Source: a virus
Length of the DNA stretch: 27,695 nt
IMG/VR virus record: IMGVR_UViG_3300045988_163776
Coordinates: 128,001-155,695 of that record
Direction: 5' to 3' (one strand)
Translations under genes and position numbers: made by a program
Notes under the pieces: model-generated
What the model saw: the letters and a program-made list of their open reading frames with translations, nothing else
Told to the model about the DNA's origin: nothing
Database searches by the model: none
Part shown: piece after piece, positions 5,295 through 27,525 of the stretch
Position numbering within the stretch: position 1 is the stretch's first letter
How the letters are laid out: the number at the start of each line of letters is the position of its first letter

Positions 5295-6667
5295 GTTGTT
5301 TATTTACAATAGCAAAACAATTTGAACAGGTAATTGATTATTCTCAAGGATTTAAACCGGCACAATCAAAACAAGTTATAAAACAATGGTTTAAAGCTAA
5401 AAAACCTTTCATAAAAAAATTAGGTGGTTTTATATATGAATATCCAGAAACTATAACAACAGATTTATCAGATGCAGAAAAAAGAATGAAAATTAGTGAT
5501 TTTACTGACTGGGTAGAAAGAAAATATGGCTTATATGATTTATCTAATTTTATTACAGCAAATGAAAAAACTTTTTTTGAAAATGCAGTAGCAGAAGAAT
5601 ATAAATATAAAGGTATTATTATACCAAAAGGAATGAAATTATTAAAAGCTTTTAAATATTTTGAAGAGAATAAAGATATTTTAAACGATATTCAAAATGT
5701 GGCAAGTATGTCTATACAAGAAAATAAAATTTCTGGAAAACTATGTTTATCAGTGCATCCACTAGACTTTTTATCCAGTAGCGAGAATACTCTTAATTGG
5801 CGGTCTTGTCATGCCCTTGACGGAGAATATCGCGCGGGGAATTTAAGCTATATGCTTGATGGGAGTACAATAATTTGTTATTTAAAGACAGATGAAGAAG
5901 TAAAGCTTCCACGTTTCCCCTCAAGCGTACCTTGGAACAATAAAAAATGGCGTTGTTTATTATTCTTTTCAGAAAATAATAAAATGATGTTTGCGGGACG
6001 CCCTTATCCATTCGCTGCAAATGGACTTTTAAATAAAATAAGAGATATAGTTCAAGAATTAAAATTGATTGAAGTATTAAATCAACCTTATTGGAGAAAA
6101 CAATACCTTAGCGAATGGCGAAATGATTATGTTGATACTTTTAATTTTTCAGATGGGACACAAGTTAAATTAGAGAGTAGGTTTATTTTAGATTGTTATA
6201 GTGAACTAGTACGTCTGGAAGAAATAATAACAAATGGACAAGGAAGTTGTCATTATAACGATTTGCTATATTCTTCTTGTTATGTGCCTTATTATGTTCA
6301 AGTAGAGTCTGGAGATCATGTCCCAAAGTATAAAAACTATTTTAAAATTGGAGCTAGAACTTTATGCCTTAATTGCGGGAAGTATGAAATATCAGACCCA
6401 GATTCAATGCTATGTGAAGACTGTCTTGATTATTATGATTCAGAAGATTGCTTAGATGAAACATTCTGTTCTGAATGCGGAGCAATAGTTGAAGAGGGTG
6501 AAGGAGAGTTTGCTGCAACAGGGGAGTTTTTATGCCCTCATTGTATAGAAGAATATACCCAAAGATGCTATAAATGTAATGCACGATATTATCAAAATGA
6601 TATGTCTGTTGTTCGAGATGAAGATAATACTCATGTACATTGGATTTGTGCAAATTGTAAGGAATAG
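5291..6667 (+). CDS. large Cys-rich zinc-ribbon protein, paralog of the 1092-2735 product
   Basis: aaggagg RBS. Shares the LSVHPLDF...W.SC..GEYR.G core with the paralog. C-terminal CLNCG..CEDC..CSECG..CPHC..CYKCN. Ends with TAG 6665-6667. Confidence 0.75.
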   Translation: MSCLFTIAKQFEQVIDYSQGFKPAQSKQVIKQWFKAKKPFIKKLGGFIYEYPETITTDLSDAEKRMKISDFTDWVERKYGLYDLSNFITANEKTFFENAVAEEYKYKGIIIPKGMKLLKAFKYFEENKDILNDIQNVASMSIQENKISGKLCLSVHPLDFLSSSENTLNWRSCHALDGEYRAGNLSYMLDGSTIICYLKTDEEVKLPRFPSSVPWNNKKWRCLLFFSENNKMMFAGRPYPFAANGLLNKIRDIVQELKLIEVLNQPYWRKQYLSEWRNDYVDTFNFSDGTQVKLESRFILDCYSELVRLEEIITNGQGSCHYNDLLYSSCYVPYYVQVESGDHVPKYKNYFKIGARTLCLNCGKYEISDPDSMLCEDCLDYYDSEDCLDETFCSECGAIVEEGEGEFAATGEFLCPHCIEEYTQRCYKCNARYYQNDMSVVRDEDNTHVHWICANCKE

Positions 6668-7381: not shown

Positions 7382-7855
7382 ATTTAGTAAAATGGTTTAT
7401 AATTTAAGTTTTCCGGAAAAACTTAGTACAATCATTGGATTTATATTATGAGTTCGAGTCTCATTAGCTTGCTACAGTAAAGGACGAATATAAAAACTTA
7501 AAATGTATTAGAGGTCAGCTCTGTGGTGAGAGTGAGTACTAAGATACAGGAGATTGGAAGTAAGCAATACACACCACTGAGCTTACTTTTGAGAGATATG
7601 AGATAGAACCTCCTCGTGGTTTCTCTCGGGCAATGCCTTAATAACTTTTGTTTATAGTTAATATGGTAGCAAATCTATCTTTACCCCTTTCCTTATAATA
7701 CTTAAAAAAAAGACAGTATCAGCAAATGAAATGCGTTAAATTAGGGATTTAAAGTGCTTTTATAAAACTGTCTTGTAATATGGTTCTATGGTTTAAGAAA
7801 TTAAAGTACTGTTTTATCATAGTAGAGCTTAAATCTCATAGAACCACCATTATAT

Positions 7856-7928
7856 AGTGATGTAGTTCAGTTGGCAGAACACCTCTCTAATACGGAGGAA
7901 GTCATAGGTTCAAACCCTATTATCACTA
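7856..7928 (+). tRNA. tRNA with apparent anticodon AAU (Ile-like); near-duplicate of the Lys(UUU) tRNA at 14843
   Basis: Acceptor agtgatg/tatcact, D-arm gttc-agttggca-gaac, anticodon stem cctct/ggagg, loop ctAATac, T-arm atagg-ttcaaac-cctat. Confidence 0.55.
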
Positions 7929-8406
7929 TCTTGTGTCGTCGTCAGCGACTATAAATAACTGTGCAGGTTCCCGTGCGATAGCGGATGTGCAAGCTAATCC
8001 ACAAACATACTATCGCCTATATTCCTCTATAGCTCAGCTGGAGGAGCCAAATACATTGAATTGAGGGTATTAGTCCTCAATTCAATGTTCTAAAGGGATA
8101 GAGAATTTGACTTTTAATTAAGTTCTCTAGGTTCGAATTTTTATATCGACTTTTGCAATAAATCATTCGAGAGGAAGTGCGACTCGACATTACAGAGAAA
8201 TCTCAAACGTGATAAAAACGGCGTCTAAAGTCATGACAACAAACGCCATCTATAATGTGACGGATGGTATAAAGGTTGATTTGCTGTAAAAGTTGATATA
8301 GAGATTCTATTAGTTATTTATAAATTCTATTATGAAAAATACTAGTTCACCTTATATAAAATTTAAAGATTATAAGGCTTGAACAAAATAATTTTATATT
8401 TTATAT

Positions 8407-9491: not shown

Positions 9492-10130
9492 TTGGCATAC
9501 ATTTATAAAATTATAAATGATATAAATTAGAAAATTTATATCGGAAAAACAGAATTTTCAATAGAAAAAAGGTTTAAAGAGCATTGTAAAGATGCTTTTA
9601 AAAAAAGAAATGAAAAAAGACCATTGTATTCTGCTATGAATAAATATGGTGTTGAACATTTTCATATTGAACTAATTGAAGAAACAGATATACCAGAAGA
9701 AAGAGAAATTTATTGGATTGAAAAATATCGTTCTTTTAAAAATGGTTATAATGCTACTTTGGGTGGAGATGGTAAAAAATATATTGATTATGATTTAGTT
9801 ATCTCTACTTATAAAGAACTATTAAGCATTACTGGAACTGCGAAAAAGATTGGTATATCAGAAGATAGTGTAAGCAATATTGTTCATAATCAAAAAGATA
9901 TAACTATATTAAGTGCATCTGAAGTAAATATACTGAAAAATGGGCATATAATTAATCAATATAATAAAAATACAAAAGAATTTATACAATCTTTTCCATC
10001 TATAAAAGCGGCTGCTAGAGCTGTTACAAATAAAGAAAAGATAGGTGGTGAAGCATCTCATATTATGGATGTTTGTAAAGGAAAAAGAAAAAGTGCTTAT
10101 GGTTATTATTGGCAATTTGCAGATAAATAA
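9492..10130 (+). CDS. GIY-YIG family homing endonuclease; one in-frame TAG at 9528
   Basis: From TTG 9492 (aaggag 10 nt upstream) the frame reads AYIYKIINDIN*KIYIGKTEFSIEKRFKEH..., i.e. GIY...YIG plus the catalytic R/E/H spacing, contiguous with track ORF 9624-10130. Sits between two tRNA genes. Confidence 0.6.
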
Positions 10131-10295
10131 GTTACCTCCATTCCGTTCATAGGGATGATAAGATACAAATCTCGATAGAGGAACAAATGCTCTTTAGTAT
10201 GCGTGGTTACACAGACCTTAATGTGTTTAAATATAGAGTAATTATTGCTGTAAGATATTTTATTGTAAGGCGTGTAAATAATTACTCTTTTATAT

Positions 10296-10370
10296 GGCTC
10301 CATCGTCTAAAAGTAAGGACATCAGTCTCTCAAACTGGAAATGGGATAGCATAATTCTCTGGAGTCACCA
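10296..10370 (+). tRNA. tRNA-Glu(CUC)-like with non-canonical T-loop, CCA encoded
   Basis: Acceptor ggctcca/tggagtc, D-arm gtct/ggac, anticodon arm tcagt-ctCTCaa-actgg, T-arm gggat-agcataa-ttctc (weak), then a cca. Confidence 0.4.
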
Positions 10371-10374
10371 GTAT

Positions 10375-10451
10375 CAAGTAAATTAATTAATTAATGTATC
10401 TCTTATGTATTGTTTGGCATTGATTAAATTTAATATTAATTAATTTACTTG
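10375..10451. repeat. 17-bp perfect inverted repeat flanking a 42-bp spacer
   Basis: caagtaaattaattaat ... attaattaatttacttg. Confidence 0.6.
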
Positions 10452-10811
10452 ATTTTATATAAAGAGCAAATGATATGCGCGGCGACCGGTGACCTAAGCT
10501 GGAATTGTATTGGGGCATGGTGTTGTTGCAAAACGTGTAAGTTTAAGCTTCATCACTAGCTTCATAAGCTAACATAGAAAATTAAAAGTTTTACACTTGT
10601 TATTGAAGTTGTTGCACTTTTAAGCTATAATGTTAGCATAATAAAAAAATGGAATTAAATCATTTTCTTATTGGTGGTTTAGTTCCCTCCGCCAATATAT
10701 TATGATGTGTGTTTAAGGGGGAGAAGTAGAAAATAAGTGGAAATCAGGGGCGGGAATTGATGTGACACCCCTGACGACTAACAAGTGGAGGTTTGAGTTA
10801 GTTACTTATAT

Positions 10812-10896
10812 GCAGGTATGGCGGAACTGGCAGACGCATGGGACTTAAAATCCCAGGAGTAAAATCGTGTGGGTTCGAATCCCACTACCTGTACCA
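10812..10896 (+). tRNA. tRNA-Leu(UAA), class II, CCA encoded
   Basis: Acceptor gcaggta/tacctgt, anticodon arm tggga-ctTAAaa-tccca, 13-nt variable arm, T-arm gtggg-ttcgaat-cccac, then a cca. Confidence 0.75.
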
Positions 10897-11036
10897 GAGT
10901 CCAAGTGTGAGAAAGTTCTGAAGCAATGCTGGACTTTAATCAGGCAAATTAAGTAAAAGTGCATGAGTAACTTAAAATGCAAGCATCTCGTAGTTCAGTA
11001 GATAGAGAATCTAAAAGAGTATCTACATTTTAATAT

Positions 11037-11109
11037 TGCGGAGTGATGTAATGGTAGTATTTTAGCTTGATTAAGTTAAAGATTAGTAGTTCAAATTTAC
11101 TCTCCGCAT
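11037..11109 (+). tRNA. tRNA with an 8-nt anticodon loop (ttgattaa); identity unresolved
   Basis: Perfect acceptor tgcggag/ctccgca, U8, D-arm atgt-aatggta-gtat, anticodon stem ttagc/gttaa enclosing 8 nt, variable agatt, canonical T-arm agtag-ttcaaat-ttact. Confidence 0.45.
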
Positions 11110-11117
11110 TAAAGAAT

Positions 11118-11191
11118 GCAGATATAATTTAATGGTAAAATTCCAGCCTTCCAAGCTGGTCTTGTGGGTTCGATTCCCATTATCTGCTCCA
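11118..11191 (+). tRNA. tRNA-Gly(UCC), CCA encoded
   Basis: Acceptor gcagata/tatctgc, D-arm attt-aatggta-aaat, anticodon arm ccagc-ctTCCaa-gctgg, T-arm gtggg-ttcgatt-cccat, then t cca. Confidence 0.75.
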
Positions 11192-11199
11192 GTAAATTT

Positions 11200-11275
11200 T
11201 GGGGTATGGTGCAACCGGTTAGCACACTGGACTTTGACTCCAGCAATCTAGGTTCAAGTCCTAGTACCCCAGCCA
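11200..11275 (+). tRNA. tRNA-Gln(UUG), CCA encoded
   Basis: tggggta...taccccag cca with U1:A72, G2:C71, G3:C70, G73 (classical Gln identity set). Anticodon arm ctgga-ctTTGac-tccag, T-arm ctagg-ttcaagt-cctag. Confidence 0.8.
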
Positions 11276-11308: not shown

Positions 11309-12400
11309 ATGAATATTATATGTTCTGGTTCTAGATATCAAGTGTATGATACAGAAGATATAAAGACTTATTCTAAACTTCCAGTAGGGACATATGAAGT
11401 ATGTTTTAATCAAAATATTGGTTTTTATCTAACTGCTCATACTGCATTAGAAGTTAAAGAAGAAAAAATTTACGGCTCTACTTTAAACAGAATAGATAAG
11501 ATATTATCATCTTTTGGAAAAAGTGAACGTAACTTTGGTGTTATTTTAAGTGGAAATAAGGGAAGTGGTAAGTCTTTATTTGCAAGAGAATTAAGTAAAA
11601 AATGTCTTGAAAAAGAAATGCCTGTTATTATTGTTAATATAGCAGTTCCAGGAGTAGCTTCTTTTCTTGCTTCAATTAAACAAGAGGTAATGATTTTATT
11701 TGATGAGTTTGAAAAAACTTTTTCTTTTGAAAATGATTGCGGAGAAAAATCTGAACTTCCGCAAGAAGAATTGTTATCTTTATTTGATGGTTTGGATAGT
11801 GGTAAAAAATTATTCATAATTACCTGCAATGATACTTATAGGTTAAGCGATTATTTACTTAATCGTCCGGGCAGATTTCATTATCATTTTAAACTTGGTG
11901 TAGTTACACCGGAAGATATGAGAGAATATATGTCTGATAAATTGTTACCAAAATATCATTATAATATTGAAAAATTAATTAATGTAAGTAATTTTGTTGA
12001 TATGACTTATGATTTATTAAGAGCAATTGTTTTTGATCTTAATCAAGGATATGAATTAGAAGAAACATTATCTGATTTAAATGTTGACAATAAAGATTCT
12101 ATATCAATTGAAGCAACTTTAACCCTTGAAAATGGTTCCGTGTATAAAGCATTAAATTCACATTTATATTTTCAAAACCGTGATTGTTTACAACTCTTTG
12201 ATAGAAATCATGTGGGAGTAAATATAATTTATTACGCTAAAGATTTAAGTTTCAATGGCAATGAAGTTGTTTTAAAAAAATATACATTATCTTTTGATGA
12301 CCAAGCACCAGAAAGTGATAAGCAATCAGAGGTTAAAGAATTAACTATTAAAATAAAAAATGAGTATTCATTTAATTTTATGAATAGTTTTACAGTATAA
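11309..12400 (+). CDS. AAA+/P-loop ATPase
   Basis: Walker A GNKGSGKS, Walker B MILFDEFEK, sensor-1-like IITCND. Intact 363-aa ORF with aaagggg RBS and TAA stop. Confidence 0.7.
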   Translation: MNIICSGSRYQVYDTEDIKTYSKLPVGTYEVCFNQNIGFYLTAHTALEVKEEKIYGSTLNRIDKILSSFGKSERNFGVILSGNKGSGKSLFARELSKKCLEKEMPVIIVNIAVPGVASFLASIKQEVMILFDEFEKTFSFENDCGEKSELPQEELLSLFDGLDSGKKLFIITCNDTYRLSDYLLNRPGRFHYHFKLGVVTPEDMREYMSDKLLPKYHYNIEKLINVSNFVDMTYDLLRAIVFDLNQGYELEETLSDLNVDNKDSISIEATLTLENGSVYKALNSHLYFQNRDCLQLFDRNHVGVNIIYYAKDLSFNGNEVVLKKYTLSFDDQAPESDKQSEVKELTIKIKNEYSFNFMNSFTV

Positions 12401-13052: not shown

Positions 13053-13082
13053 TATATGTAAAAGACAATAACAGCAATAAGT

Positions 13083-13155
13083 TCGAGAGTAGCTCAGATG
13101 GTTAGAGTGTTATAGTAAAATATAAAGGTCTGCAGTTCAAATCTGCACTTTTGGA
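13083..13155 (+). tRNA. tRNA-like gene with an atypical 6-nt anticodon loop
   Basis: D-arm gctc-agatggtta-gagt, stem ttata/tataa around gtaaaa, canonical T-arm tgcag-ttcaaat-ctgca. Acceptor tcgagag/cttttgg needs three G-U pairs. Confidence 0.3.
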
Positions 13156-13190
13156 GAAAACAACGTTGTCTTGTACATATGGTGTTATTG

Positions 13191-13265
13191 GTGTAATAGT
13201 AGCATAACGCACTGTGACTGCGTAGGCGAGAGGGCAGAACTCTCATTTCACCCCACTAAAAAAGA
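13191..13265 (+). tRNA. tRNA-His(GUG) with G-1, CCA encoded
   Basis: G-1 pairs with C73. D-arm gtgt-aatagta-gcat, anticodon arm acgca-ctGTGac-tgcgt, T-arm gagag-ggcagaa-ctctc (non-canonical loop). Acceptor has two U-U mismatches. Ends c cca. Confidence 0.5.
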
Positions 13266-13282
13266 CGATTACAGCAATTCAT

Positions 13283-13360
13283 TACCATTTAGCTTAATGG
13301 GAAAGAGCGTTAGAGTTTTAATCTAAAGGAGCGGTTCGAATCCGCATATTTAAATCGTCT
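13283..13360 (+). tRNA. tRNA-like element (UUU anticodon arm plus canonical T-arm); acceptor ends unresolved
   Basis: D-arm gctt-aatgggaaa-gagc, anticodon arm ttaga-gtTTTaa-tctaa, T-arm gcgg-ttcgaat-ccgc. The only complementary acceptor-like strands (agacgat 13273-13279 and atcgtct 13364-13370) lie outside with spacers. Confidence 0.3.
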
Positions 13361-14918: not shown

Positions 14919-15038
14919 TTAAGGAGGAAGATAAATGAAAATTTATACATCATATTTTTATCGAAAATTGGGTTAAAATTGAAAATTATTACTCCTTACT
15001 TTTCATATTATAATGGAGAAAAGGAGTGAAATAATTTT

Positions 15039-15997
15039 ATGGATATAAATTTTTTAAAGGAGATTAAATCTCAGTACCCTGAATTAAACAAGAAAGAAAA
15101 AAATTTTTTATCTTTTGGAGATAAAATACATCATTGGACTATACTATATCGAACTTTTAATACTAAAAGTAATCATATTTAGTATGTTTGCTAGTGTGAT
15201 TGTGGCACAATTATTCCAGTAGCAAAAACAAGTCTTATAAATAATAAAAGTAAAAGTTGTATTCTCTGTAAAGGTCATAGCATTTTAGGTCAAAAATTTG
15301 GAAAATTAACTGTTCTATATAGAATAGATAATGAAAATAATAGAGGATATTGGCATTGTAAATGTGATTGTGGAAATGAGTGTAACGTAAATACATCTAA
15401 TTTAATATCTGGACATACACGCTCATGCGGTTGCTTACATAAAGAGGTTTAGCATAATAGAAGAATAGATTTAACTGGTTAGCGTTTTGGTAAATTAATT
15501 GCTTTATATCCAGTTTTAACTAAAAAAGGTGATAAATAGCCTTATTGGCATTGCAAGTGTGACTGTGGAGTTGAAAAAGATATATAGGCTGGGTGTTTAA
15601 AAGCTGGAGTTGTAAAATCCTGTGGCTGTATAAAATCTCTTGGAGAAGAAAATATTATAAAAGTATTAAAAGAAAATAATATTTCTTTTGAATATTAGTA
15701 TAAATTTTTTGATTTGCCAAAATATACTTTTGATTTTTTTGTAAATAATTAGTATATTATTGAATATGATGGAATTCAACATTTTACAGATAGTAGTGGA
15801 TGGAATAATAAAATAAACGTTCAAAATGTTCATAAAAGAGACTTATTAAAAAATTAGTATTGTTTTATTAATAACATTCCTATTATTAGAATTCCTTATG
15901 ATGTTTCATACAATTTAAATGATTTAATATTAGAAACTACTAATTTTCTTTTAACCCAAGAAAATGAAAATTAGTATTATGAAGGGAGATTTAACTG
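15039..15997 (+). CDS. homing-endonuclease-like protein (tandem Cys-rich YWHCKCDCG motifs plus a PD-(D/E)xK/Vsr-like C-terminal FDFF..IEYDGxQHF domain); about 10 in-frame TAG codons
   Basis: From ATG 15039 one frame runs about 319 codons to TGA 15995-15997, interrupted only by TAG. Product MDINFLKEIKSQYPELNKK...YWHCKCDCGNEC...YWHCKCDCGVEKDI...KYTFDFFVNN*YIIEYDGIQHFTDSSGW. Absent from the ORF track because of the TAGs. Confidence 0.5.
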
Positions 15998-16069
15998 TTG
16001 ACTATATACACTTCATACTTTTATTAGGTTAGATTTTTCCCTCCTAACTTAATACCACTAAGCACTGCA

Positions 16070-26342: not shown

Positions 26343-26355
26343 GAGTTGCTAAAAA

Positions 26356-27525
26356 ATGAATCAGATAAGTGATAAAAAAGACTGCCGAGGATGCATGAGC
26401 TTTTGTATGCAAGGTAAATAGTTGGCAGTAGCTGGACATGATGAAAGTCATACCGGTTGGAAAAAATGGAAAGATTTAACTTCTGGTAAGGATGGAACTA
26501 TTATTTGTAGTAAAGATGGATTATCTGCTACCAATCAAACAGACTTAATAAATTTTATCAGAGATGTTTATAAAACTGGAGTGTATAATCCAGAAAAAGG
26601 AAATATGTTTGATGAAGTTCCAAAAAATTTATCACACGTTTATGATTCTCCTTCCTCTAAAAGTGTTCCAAATTCATTAAAAGTTGCAGAAGAAGGAGTT
26701 TCAAGCGATGCTGTTATATATGCAAAACATTATAATAATTTTTTAGAAGCTTTAGCATCTAGTCAAACCAACCCTATTTCAGTAGATAGCAAAGGAGAAC
26801 CTTTAAAAGATAAAAATAAAAATCCTATTAATAATAACGCTACTGAATCTGGCCCAGTCGCTGGTTGGTGGACTAATGCAGATCCTATTGTCGTATCTGG
26901 ATAGAAATATCCGAATAGCGATTTAAGCTTAATAAAAGCTGACTTATATAAAAGTTTATATGAAAAAGCAAGTAAATTAATGTATCATCCTCATCAATGT
27001 TGTATTTGCAATGTATATGAGGGTGGAGATTGGTTAGAAATAGTTAAAGATATTGGCACAGCCTGTTATAATTATGGGATTGTATATAATAACCATGCAG
27101 GAGGTGCTGTTGATACTGCAAAAGGCTATCATGTAACTTTAAGTCGTTTTGACTGTTCTGGATACGTAGGAGCTTGCTTAGCTGTTTTTAATGCTGTTGA
27201 AAATGGTAGTAGTAGCACTAACATTTCTGGATATGGAGGAACTTCAGACGCTTACTTAGAAGATGGTTCTGGGATTCCCTCAAGCTTAAAAAAATATTTT
27301 TCTTTTTCAAGTTCACTTCCTTCTAAACCTGGTTCTATTTTAGTAAGATGGGCAAAATCTGGAGTAGACCCTTTTGGCAATAGAACAGAACACGTTGAGA
27401 TACGAGGAGAAAATGGTATTTGGAGTGGTGGAGGTCGTGGAGGCCCCTCTGGAAATCTTATGATGGGTAAAATGGATACTGGTGGCACTACCTGTAATTT
27501 TGGTTGGGAATATACAGGAGGATAA
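26356..27525 (+). CDS. NlpC/P60-family peptidase-domain protein (putative endolysin/cell-wall hydrolase); 2 in-frame TAG codons
   Basis: ATG 26356 after aggag. Track ORFs 26422-26904 and 26980-27525 share the frame (mod 3 = 1) and are joined by TAG 26902-26904, with another TAG at 26419. C-terminal FDCSGYVGACLAVF...TEHVEIRG matches the NlpC/P60 Cys...His catalytic arrangement. Confidence 0.55.

Follow-up and report, generated by a model that had tools for sequence, protein, structure and literature searches.

Natural tRNAs with an 8-nt anticodon loop are rare, and the ones that are known are either laboratory frameshift suppressors or a mitochondrial curiosity. Here we analyse a tRNA gene with such a loop from a human-gut phage. 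The gene lies at positions 11037-11109, on the plus strand, of a 27,695-nt stretch of IMG/VR virus record IMGVR_UViG_3300045988_163776 (positions 128,001 to 155,695 of that record). This stretch, which we call the window, is 27.7 kb of a 155.7-kb gut-metagenome scaffold (ENA ERZ28573263; 31% G+C), and all coordinates below refer to it unless a related locus is named. Related loci and assemblies compared with the window are given L-numbers (e.g. L053, L071). On balance, we favour the view that the copy in the window is an accessory tRNA in decay, with marginal function at best.

Four kinds of described tRNA come closest to this gene. The Salmonella frameshift suppressors are forms of tRNA-Pro (sufA6 and sufB2), tRNA-Gly (sufD) and tRNA-Thr (sufJ); in sufA6 and sufB2 the extra base lies 3' of the anticodon, the same place that it would occupy in the phage gene if GAU is the anticodon. 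Like these suf suppressors and engineered quadruplet tRNAs, the phage gene combines a normal cloverleaf with one extra anticodon-loop nucleotide, giving 8 nt (for the general point, see PMC9094753). The suf tRNAs, however, are laboratory-selected mutants of identifiable host tRNAs that act at particular codons of a slippery or repetitive kind (CCC-N, GGG-N), whereas for the phage gene we found no 7-nt parent and, within the window, no cognate four-base or slippery +1 site. Yeast mitochondrial tRNA-Thr1(UAG) offers a naturally fixed 8-nt loop in a tRNA of different isoacceptor ancestry that reads triplets (PMC3113583). That tRNA is essential to a codon reassignment, in a setting where tRNA-Leu(UAG) is absent and a dedicated synthetase is present. 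The phage gene, in contrast, is dispensable, and it does not stand in for a canonical tRNA that has been replaced and lost: L071 and L073 carry canonical tRNA-Ile and tRNA-Asn beside it.

The pseudo-tRNAs of phage arrays resemble the gene in their low score, strain-variable presence and spacer-like rate of change, and in having decaying neighbours (here Asp, Asn and His). They differ from it in that its 21 stem pairs are intact and its majority allele, at 54.2 bits, scores like a working tRNA. Nuclease-evading phage tRNAs (PMC10264068) likewise have non-canonical anticodon loops and sit in fast-evolving arrays, but those cases involve substitutions in 7-nt loops with decoding preserved, whereas the change here is a loop expansion. 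No account of a phage tRNA with an 8-nt anticodon loop turned up in the searchable literature.

An 8-nt anticodon loop in every assembly that carries the gene

ARAGORN reported the gene as 'tRNA-??? anticodon (gatt)', and with the Rfam tRNA model (RF00005), whose gathering score is 29, it scored 31.1 bits. This was the lowest of the 19 Rfam tRNA matches in the window, 13 of which score 56-74 bits and 6 of which score 31-41 bits. The stems are those of the family's cloverleaf (7, 4, 5 and 5 bp); the anticodon loop departs from the 7 nt expected. The 5' strand of the acceptor stem, TGCGGAG (11037-11043), forms seven Watson-Crick pairs with CTCCGCA (11102-11108) and is invariant across alleles. 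The D arm (11046-11060) reads ATGT / AATGGTA / GTAT, and its stem holds two G.U pairs. The anticodon arm (11062-11079) consists of a 5-bp stem, TTAGC/GTTAA, one pair of which is G.U, around the 8-nt loop TTGATTAA (11067-11074). The variable region is AGATT, and the T arm (11085-11101) reads AGTAG / TTCAAAT / TTACT and includes the pair G53.U61. Of the conserved tertiary-contact positions, U8, A14, G18-G19, T54-T55-C56 and A58 are present, and the G53-C61 pair is replaced by G.U. The discriminator is T (11109), and CCA is not encoded; it is encoded in 9 of the 16 tRNAs that ARAGORN called in the window.

This anatomy bears out a preliminary description of the sequence, which had listed a 7-bp acceptor stem, U8, a D-loop containing GG, a 5-nt variable region and the T-loop TTCAAAT. 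Its claim of an 8-nt anticodon loop was reproduced by ARAGORN, by all 11 assemblies that carry the gene (see below) and by covariance-model alignment, which kept the 5-bp anticodon stem and assigned the extra base to the loop. The same description had put forward a 6-nt loop as an alternative fold. The covariance model did not adopt it, and the 6-bp stem that it requires depends on a U32-A38 pair that is present only in the allele of the window, the other alleles having C32, which does not pair with A38.

An exact 20-mer of the gene and two degenerate patterns that allowed loops of 6-9 nt had no matches in IMG/VR or GTDB genomes. With blastn against GenBank phages, matches were confined to the neighbouring Leu and Gly tRNAs, and no close relative was found. 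A degenerate-pattern scan of JGI metagenomes identified one contig, L059, and an exact-protein lookup with the product of 9636-10130, upstream of the gene, located ten loci in independent ENA and Logan human-gut assemblies, nine of which carry the tRNA. Together with L059 and the window, these make 11 assemblies from about 10 human-gut samples, built with different assemblers. The loop is 8 nt, YTGATTAA (TTGATTAA or CTGATTAA), in 11/11 and 7 nt in none. Its length, which the preliminary description had proposed to compare among related phages, is conserved in every carrier.

Could the true loop be 7 nt? A single extra base is a frequent type of error, and in related phages one tRNA-Asn differs by a single loop T between strains (L006/L017 versus L003/L015). 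The probability of a sequencing or assembly artefact is nevertheless close to nil, because the identical 8-nt loop was recovered in all 11 assemblies, by different assemblers; the site, moreover, is a TT dinucleotide without a long homopolymer.

Three alleles and their fold stability

Three alleles of the gene are distinguished by six sites, each of which is C or T on the sense strand. One is loop position 32, and each of the other five is a stem base facing G. The anticodon-loop core, TGATTAA, is identical in all alleles, and the D-loop and T-loop are likewise invariant. Allele C (L071, L073, L075, L077 and L079) contains U31.G39 and is the only one with a canonical G53-C61 pair, which is G.U in alleles A and B; it scores 54.2 bits, with a cloverleaf of -18.4 kcal/mol. 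Allele B (L074, L078 and L059) has Watson-Crick stems save for G53.U61 and scores 41.4 bits; its cloverleaf (-18.0 kcal/mol) is its minimum-energy fold. Allele A, shared by the window and L080, scores 31.1 bits, and its cloverleaf (-8.8 kcal/mol) lies far above a non-cloverleaf minimum of -18.7 kcal/mol.

Allele A equals allele B with four C-to-T changes, at 11049 and 11058 in the D stem, 11067 (position 32) and 11076 (position 40), all of which are C in the other alleles. Three of these changes turn further G-C pairs into G.U, and the other turns C32 into U32. Across the 21 stem pairs in three alleles, 63/63 pair cells hold standard pairs. Five pairs vary, each on one side; among the alleles we found no double compensatory changes, only one-sided changes between G-C and G.U. 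The damage to the gene is thus a thermodynamic weakening confined to allele A, with no pair broken. Relative to L071, five of the six differences in the window copy are C-to-T, and at least five such changes among 28 GC sites would be expected with P = 4e-4 at the flanking rate. We place allele A last in a series of erosion (54, then 41, then 31 bits). The direction is supported by the closest outgroup, which has C at the corresponding positions, and by the tRNA-Asp gene described below, whose change is clearly polarised.

The four changes that distinguish allele A are spaced exactly 9 nt apart, and of the 11 differences between the window and L059 across 1622 nt they make up 4 (binomial P = 0.001). 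The 9-nt spacing may be a coincidence of stem geometry.

Dispensability and rate of change

The gene occupies a slot bounded upstream by tRNA-Leu(TAA) (10812-10896, plus strand; ARAGORN, Rfam and alignment with relatives) and downstream by tRNA-Gly(TCC) and tRNA-Gln(TTG) (11118-11275, plus strand; ARAGORN and alignment). Between tRNA-Leu and the gene lies a 140-nt spacer (10897-11036, plus strand), which, from alignment with relatives, is inherited with the gene as one cassette. The spacer held no tRNA remnant in an Rfam E-value scan and no significant fold (z-score 0.0). In L053-L056, whose ATPase is 94% identical, the place of the spacer and the gene between tRNA-Leu(TAA) and tRNA-Gly is taken by an 86-nt tRNA-Leu(TAG); there is very little difference in the tRNAs on either side or in the DNA downstream. 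In L076, a 295-nt deletion removes the spacer, the gene and tRNA-Gly, joining Leu to Gln. The gene is also absent from L057 (ATPase 85% identical) and L058 (66%).

We counted variable sites per feature across nine assemblies. They make up 8.2% of the gene, 7.9% of intergenic DNA at 10368-10811, 3.6% of intergenic DNA at 10131-10295 and 2.9% of the spacer, compared with 1.4% of tRNA-Gly, 1.2% of tRNA-Leu and 0% of tRNA-Gln. Because 8.2% of its sites vary against 0-1.4% in the neighbouring tRNAs, the gene is under far weaker constraint than its canonical neighbours. A neutral-like rate and dispensability are what one looks for in a pseudogene; the disrupted stems and lost conserved loops that would complete the picture were not seen.

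Two other elements lie close to this slot. Upstream of the cassette, 9636-10130 encodes a 164-aa protein with a weak NUMOD1 match; its counterpart in the strains in which tRNA-Leu(TAG) replaces the gene is a 62-aa fragment (L053 1769-1957). Exchange of the cassette may be connected with a homing-endonuclease-like gene. At 10296-10367 there is a tRNA-like element with a degenerate T arm, which Rfam matches weakly (37.5 bits) and ARAGORN did not call. It has zero variable sites in the nine assemblies, compared with 3.6-7.9% in the flanking intergenic DNA, and appears to be conserved though non-canonical.

Erosion of other tRNA genes in the same genome

The gene is not alone in changing. L071 and L073 carry intact tRNA-Asp(GTC) (68.8 bits), tRNA-Ile(GAT) (68.7 bits) and tRNA-Asn(GTT) (67 bits); in the window, and in L074, all three genes are altered relative to these, within flanks that are nearly identical. 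The tRNA-Asp remnant (~7782-7849) is hypermutated, with 28 differences, 23 of them GC-to-AT, together with an 8-nt deletion in the T-loop and a change of anticodon from GTC to ATC. Since the intact gene has to be older than the remnant, the direction of this change is unambiguous; the change exceeds the neutral rate with P about 1e-26. The anticodon stem of the remnant is still paired, through double changes. The tRNA-Ile gene (7855-7930) has gone from GAT to AAT (A34), and the tRNA-Asn remnant (~8023-8049) has a 49-nt internal deletion. A His-like gene at 13182-13252 (also 13283-13353) is degenerate compared with the intact tRNA-His(GTG) of L053 and L054: about 25/74 positions differ and the D-loop GG and T-loop TTC are gone, while the anticodon and acceptor ends are retained and the flanks are ~98% identical. 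At the same array position, L053 has an entirely different tRNA-Phe sequence.

The change from L071 to the window also has a direction. Transitions outside the tRNAs are balanced, with 24 GC-to-AT and 24 AT-to-GC among 60 differences over 3376 nt. The Asp remnant, the Ile gene and the 8-nt-loop gene together show 30 GC-to-AT changes against 4 (Fisher P = 3e-4). To account for this local excess over the neutral rate, one may suppose that old and diverged alleles entered by introgression, that the non-template strand was deaminated in association with transcription, or that selection acted.

Origin and anticodon identity

To find relatives of the gene, we aligned it globally with ~800 tRNAs of related loci and ran nhmmer on 776 kb of DNA from related phages. 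Apart from copies of the gene itself, the best matches were tRNA-Met(CAT) of L025 and L026 (E = 7e-4) and several tRNA-Ile(GAT/AAT) genes. The tRNA-Met of L025 and L026 has the same acceptor 5' strand, TGCGGAG, the anticodon stem TTAGC/GCTAA of allele B, and the loop CTCATAA. None of the searches returned a 7-nt-loop ortholog. On these alignments, the most parsimonious history starts from an AUN-box tRNA with the loop CUCAUAA or CUGAUAA and leads to CUGAUUAA, with GAU as the most parsimonious anticodon and a duplicated U on its 3' side.

As a fallback, the preliminary description had proposed either GAU in a distorted loop or UUA, an ochre-reading anticodon. The GAU half agrees with the Met(CAU) and Ile(GAU) affinities just described. 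The UUA half fails on loop geometry: this triplet would occupy loop positions 5-7 and leave one base on its 3' side, which is incompatible with the geometry of an anticodon. We also considered an origin from tRNA-Asn(GUU) by insertion of an A; the nearest relatives are all Met(CAT) or Ile(GAT/AAT), and none is Asn.

Other 8-nt loops in related phages

We then asked how common expanded loops are, using ARAGORN on 51 related IMG/VR loci. Directly upstream of the ATPase gene lies a tRNA called UAAA (UAGA in L011), with the loop GTTAAAAG (GTTAGAAG in L011); it occurs in L007, L008, L009, L012, L014-L017, L029, L044 (~5902-5975), in L011 (1212-1285) and in L060-L070. Its loop is 8 nt in 11/11 IMG/VR contigs with that scaffold and 7 nt in none. 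CCA is encoded, the body is of class I, and one contig has a compensatory change, C7-G66 to T7-A66. This gene looks like a stably maintained expanded-loop tRNA. A UGUU loop in L006 (352-426) and L017 (639-713) corresponds to tRNA-Asn(GTT) in L003 (424-497) and L015 (1-74); one inserted T in the anticodon loop (ACTGTTAA against ACTTGTTAA) separates the 8-nt from the 7-nt form. A further 8-nt loop, called GTAG (GUAG), was found at L010 3508-3579. Judging by these genes, loop expansion is a recurrent event in this group of phages, and at least one expanded loop is maintained stably. The tRNA arrays of L003, L006, L007, L014, L015, L017, L019, L023, L036 and L042 also contain a tmRNA, with tags such as DNNYFDSHMAA.

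Decay and the alternatives to it

We take the gene as a whole to be a genuine accessory tRNA, restricted to one lineage of ~156-kb human-gut phage that reads TAG as sense. By sequence it belongs among the AUN-box (Met-CAU/Ile-GAU-like) tRNAs, with a fixed one-base expansion of the loop to Y-U-G-A-U-U-A-A, and it is carried as a cassette of 140-nt spacer and tRNA in an array slot that differs between strains. Allele C is its near-canonical form and the window copy its most eroded allele, one in which the cloverleaf is predicted to be no longer the preferred fold, in a genome that is also losing tRNA-Asp, tRNA-Asn, tRNA-His and the G34 of tRNA-Ile. We read the window copy as decaying because four C-to-T changes unseat the cloverleaf and because the same genome is losing other tRNAs. 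Function would then have been lost in the window genome. An intact allele, if it decodes at all, would most likely read AUY triplets with GAU, the extra U being accommodated on the 3' side.

Several observations pull the other way. All 21 stem pairs are standard in all three alleles, and the D-loop, the T-loop and the GAUU core do not vary. In a neutral simulation that used the substitution spectrum of the flanking intergenic DNA (88% transitions), all pairs were kept 12% of the time, and 3% of the time given at least five stem hits; some residual structural constraint on the gene may persist. Allele A was found in two independent samples (the window and L080) and is therefore a circulating allele. 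Real tRNAs tolerate G.U pairs, and base modifications can stabilise a weak cloverleaf. Finally, the 8-nt-loop UAAA/UAGA family is strictly conserved in related phages.

One rival reading is a functional triplet decoder with an enlarged loop, which would read AUY (Ile) with G34-A35-U36 and a bulged extra U, or AAU (Asn) with A-U-U stacked on the 3' side of the loop. Allele C makes a 54.2-bit cloverleaf with G53-C61, all stems stay paired around an invariant loop core, in a count of 5241 codons AAU (299) leads for Asn and AUU (214) for Ile, and A34 has also arisen elsewhere in the genome, in tRNA-Ile (AAT) and in the tRNA-Asp remnant (ATC). On the other hand, the U73 discriminator does not match the A73 of Escherichia coli tRNA-Ile and tRNA-Met or the G73 of tRNA-Asn that textbook identity rules give. 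The gene varies at an intergenic rate and is lost or replaced in sister strains; it is redundant in the strains with the best allele, which keep canonical tRNA-Ile(GAT) and tRNA-Asn(GTT); and where the canonical Ile and Asn genes have been lost, it erodes further instead of being preserved. A natural triplet reader with an 8-nt loop is known (PMC3113583, PMC7609411), and we regard such a role here as possible, if rather unlikely. We are more doubtful of a non-decoding role, whether as a decoy or nuclease-resistant mimic directed against host defences that target tRNAs, or as a processing unit in a polycistronic tRNA transcript. Changes in the anticodon loop reportedly allow phage tRNAs to evade anticodon nucleases (PMC10264068, PMC11555353), and the array tRNAs diverge far faster than their flanks yet keep their stems, the pattern expected of an arms race; the strain-dependent presence of the gene is also like that of accessory counter-defence genes. 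But loop expansion is not among the changes described in PMC10264068, according to a text search, and one would expect a decoy to resemble some particular target loop, whereas YUGAUUAA is not known to match any.

The preliminary description had put a frameshift suppressor foremost and had suggested that several late genes need +1 shifts at G8 tracts. In that case GAUU would pair with AAUC, or with AAUU by wobble, or else the tRNA would first pair with AAU and then, having slipped by +1, pair anew with AUC. An 8-nt anticodon loop is indeed the structural hallmark of suf-type and engineered quadruplet tRNAs, quadruplet tRNAs of every isoacceptor class can be made by inserting a single base (PMC9094753), 11/11 assemblies share the fixed 8-nt loop, and the decoding of this phage is already non-standard (TAG as sense, with a suppressor tRNA). 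Two genes of the window do require a +1 shift. The only two G8 tracts in the window (21793-21800 and 22410-22417), each within an identical 14-mer, TGACCGGGGGGGGT, lie ~100 nt into two paralogous genes (21694-22225 and 22308-22752, with ATG at 21694 and 22308), and in both genes a long downstream reading frame continues in the +1 frame after the tract. The link from these tracts to the tRNA nevertheless fails: GAUU pairs with AAUC or AAUU, not with GGGG. We also scanned both strands for handovers from one reading frame to the frame at +1, requiring each of the two to be open for at least 70 codons. Over the 27.7 kb of the 155.7-kb genome this returned ordinary gene overlaps only, none with an in-frame AAUC or AAUU. 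Among the 5241 codons of confident genes, in-frame AAUC (28) and AAUU (67) together occur at ~18 per 1000, and an efficient decoder of these quadruplets would damage nearly every phage protein. Quadruplet tRNAs are, besides, often toxic or mischarged, an engineered Ile-derived one inserting Arg and an Asn-derived one being very weak (PMC9094753). With no cognate +1 junction, and with a gene that is dispensable in sister strains, weakly constrained and as variable as intergenic DNA, the frameshift-suppressor interpretation is not supported, and we consider it very improbable. A small chance, hardly larger, is left for a novel decoding role, because expanded loops recur in these phages and at least one is stably kept: the intact allele would be a natural phage tRNA that uses an 8-nt loop for non-triplet or otherwise non-standard decoding (+1 at AAU-C, AAU or AUY), or one instance of TAG-recoded gut phages keeping fixed 8-nt-loop tRNAs.

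Were the gene to decode, it would provide a natural test case for expanded loops in a code-rewriting gut phage and possible parts for genetic-code engineering. Such expectations are tempered by its behaviour as an optional, weakly constrained cassette and by the apparent decay of the window copy. The more useful outcome may be that turnover and erosion of the tRNA genes in the array far outpace change in the flanks and run strongly from GC to AT, a pattern that bears on how phage tRNA repertoires are gained, tuned and lost.

Genomic setting

The gene shares its strand with an array of 16-19 tRNA genes, and tRNA-Gly begins 8 nt downstream of it. A promoter-like site (TTGAAG-17-TATAAT, 10/12 matches; 10603-10631, plus strand), recognised from the consensus match alone, lies upstream of the Leu, 8-nt-loop, Gly and Gln genes. 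We found no terminator-like site between it and the ATPase gene at 11309. The gene is probably co-transcribed with tRNA-Leu, tRNA-Gly and tRNA-Gln, because the promoter-like site precedes tRNA-Leu and no terminator-like site intervenes before the ATPase gene.

TAG is read as sense in this genome: with TAG open, fragments of open reading frames (ORFs) join into ORFs of 815, 390, 323 and 316 codons. The TAG-fused ORFs lie at 18434-20881, 15030-16001, 23291-24241 and 26353-27525, with 24 in-frame TAGs counted. At 16887-16974 lies a suppressor tRNA(CTA) whose acceptor stem (TGGGGAT...ATCCCCAG) resembles that of tRNA-Gln and whose variable region is unusually long.

Next to the two genes with G8 tracts, a third paralog (ATG at 22815) is continuous and lacks a G tract. 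The gene upstream of them (20935-21540) encodes collagen-like GGTCCACAAGG repeats, and the region may be a tail-fibre module. The G8 tracts themselves could be sites of programmed slippage or of phase variation. Elsewhere in the window, at 13082-13156, ARAGORN called a tRNA with a 6-nt anticodon loop, 'anticodon (aa)', which is conserved in the close relatives L053-L056.

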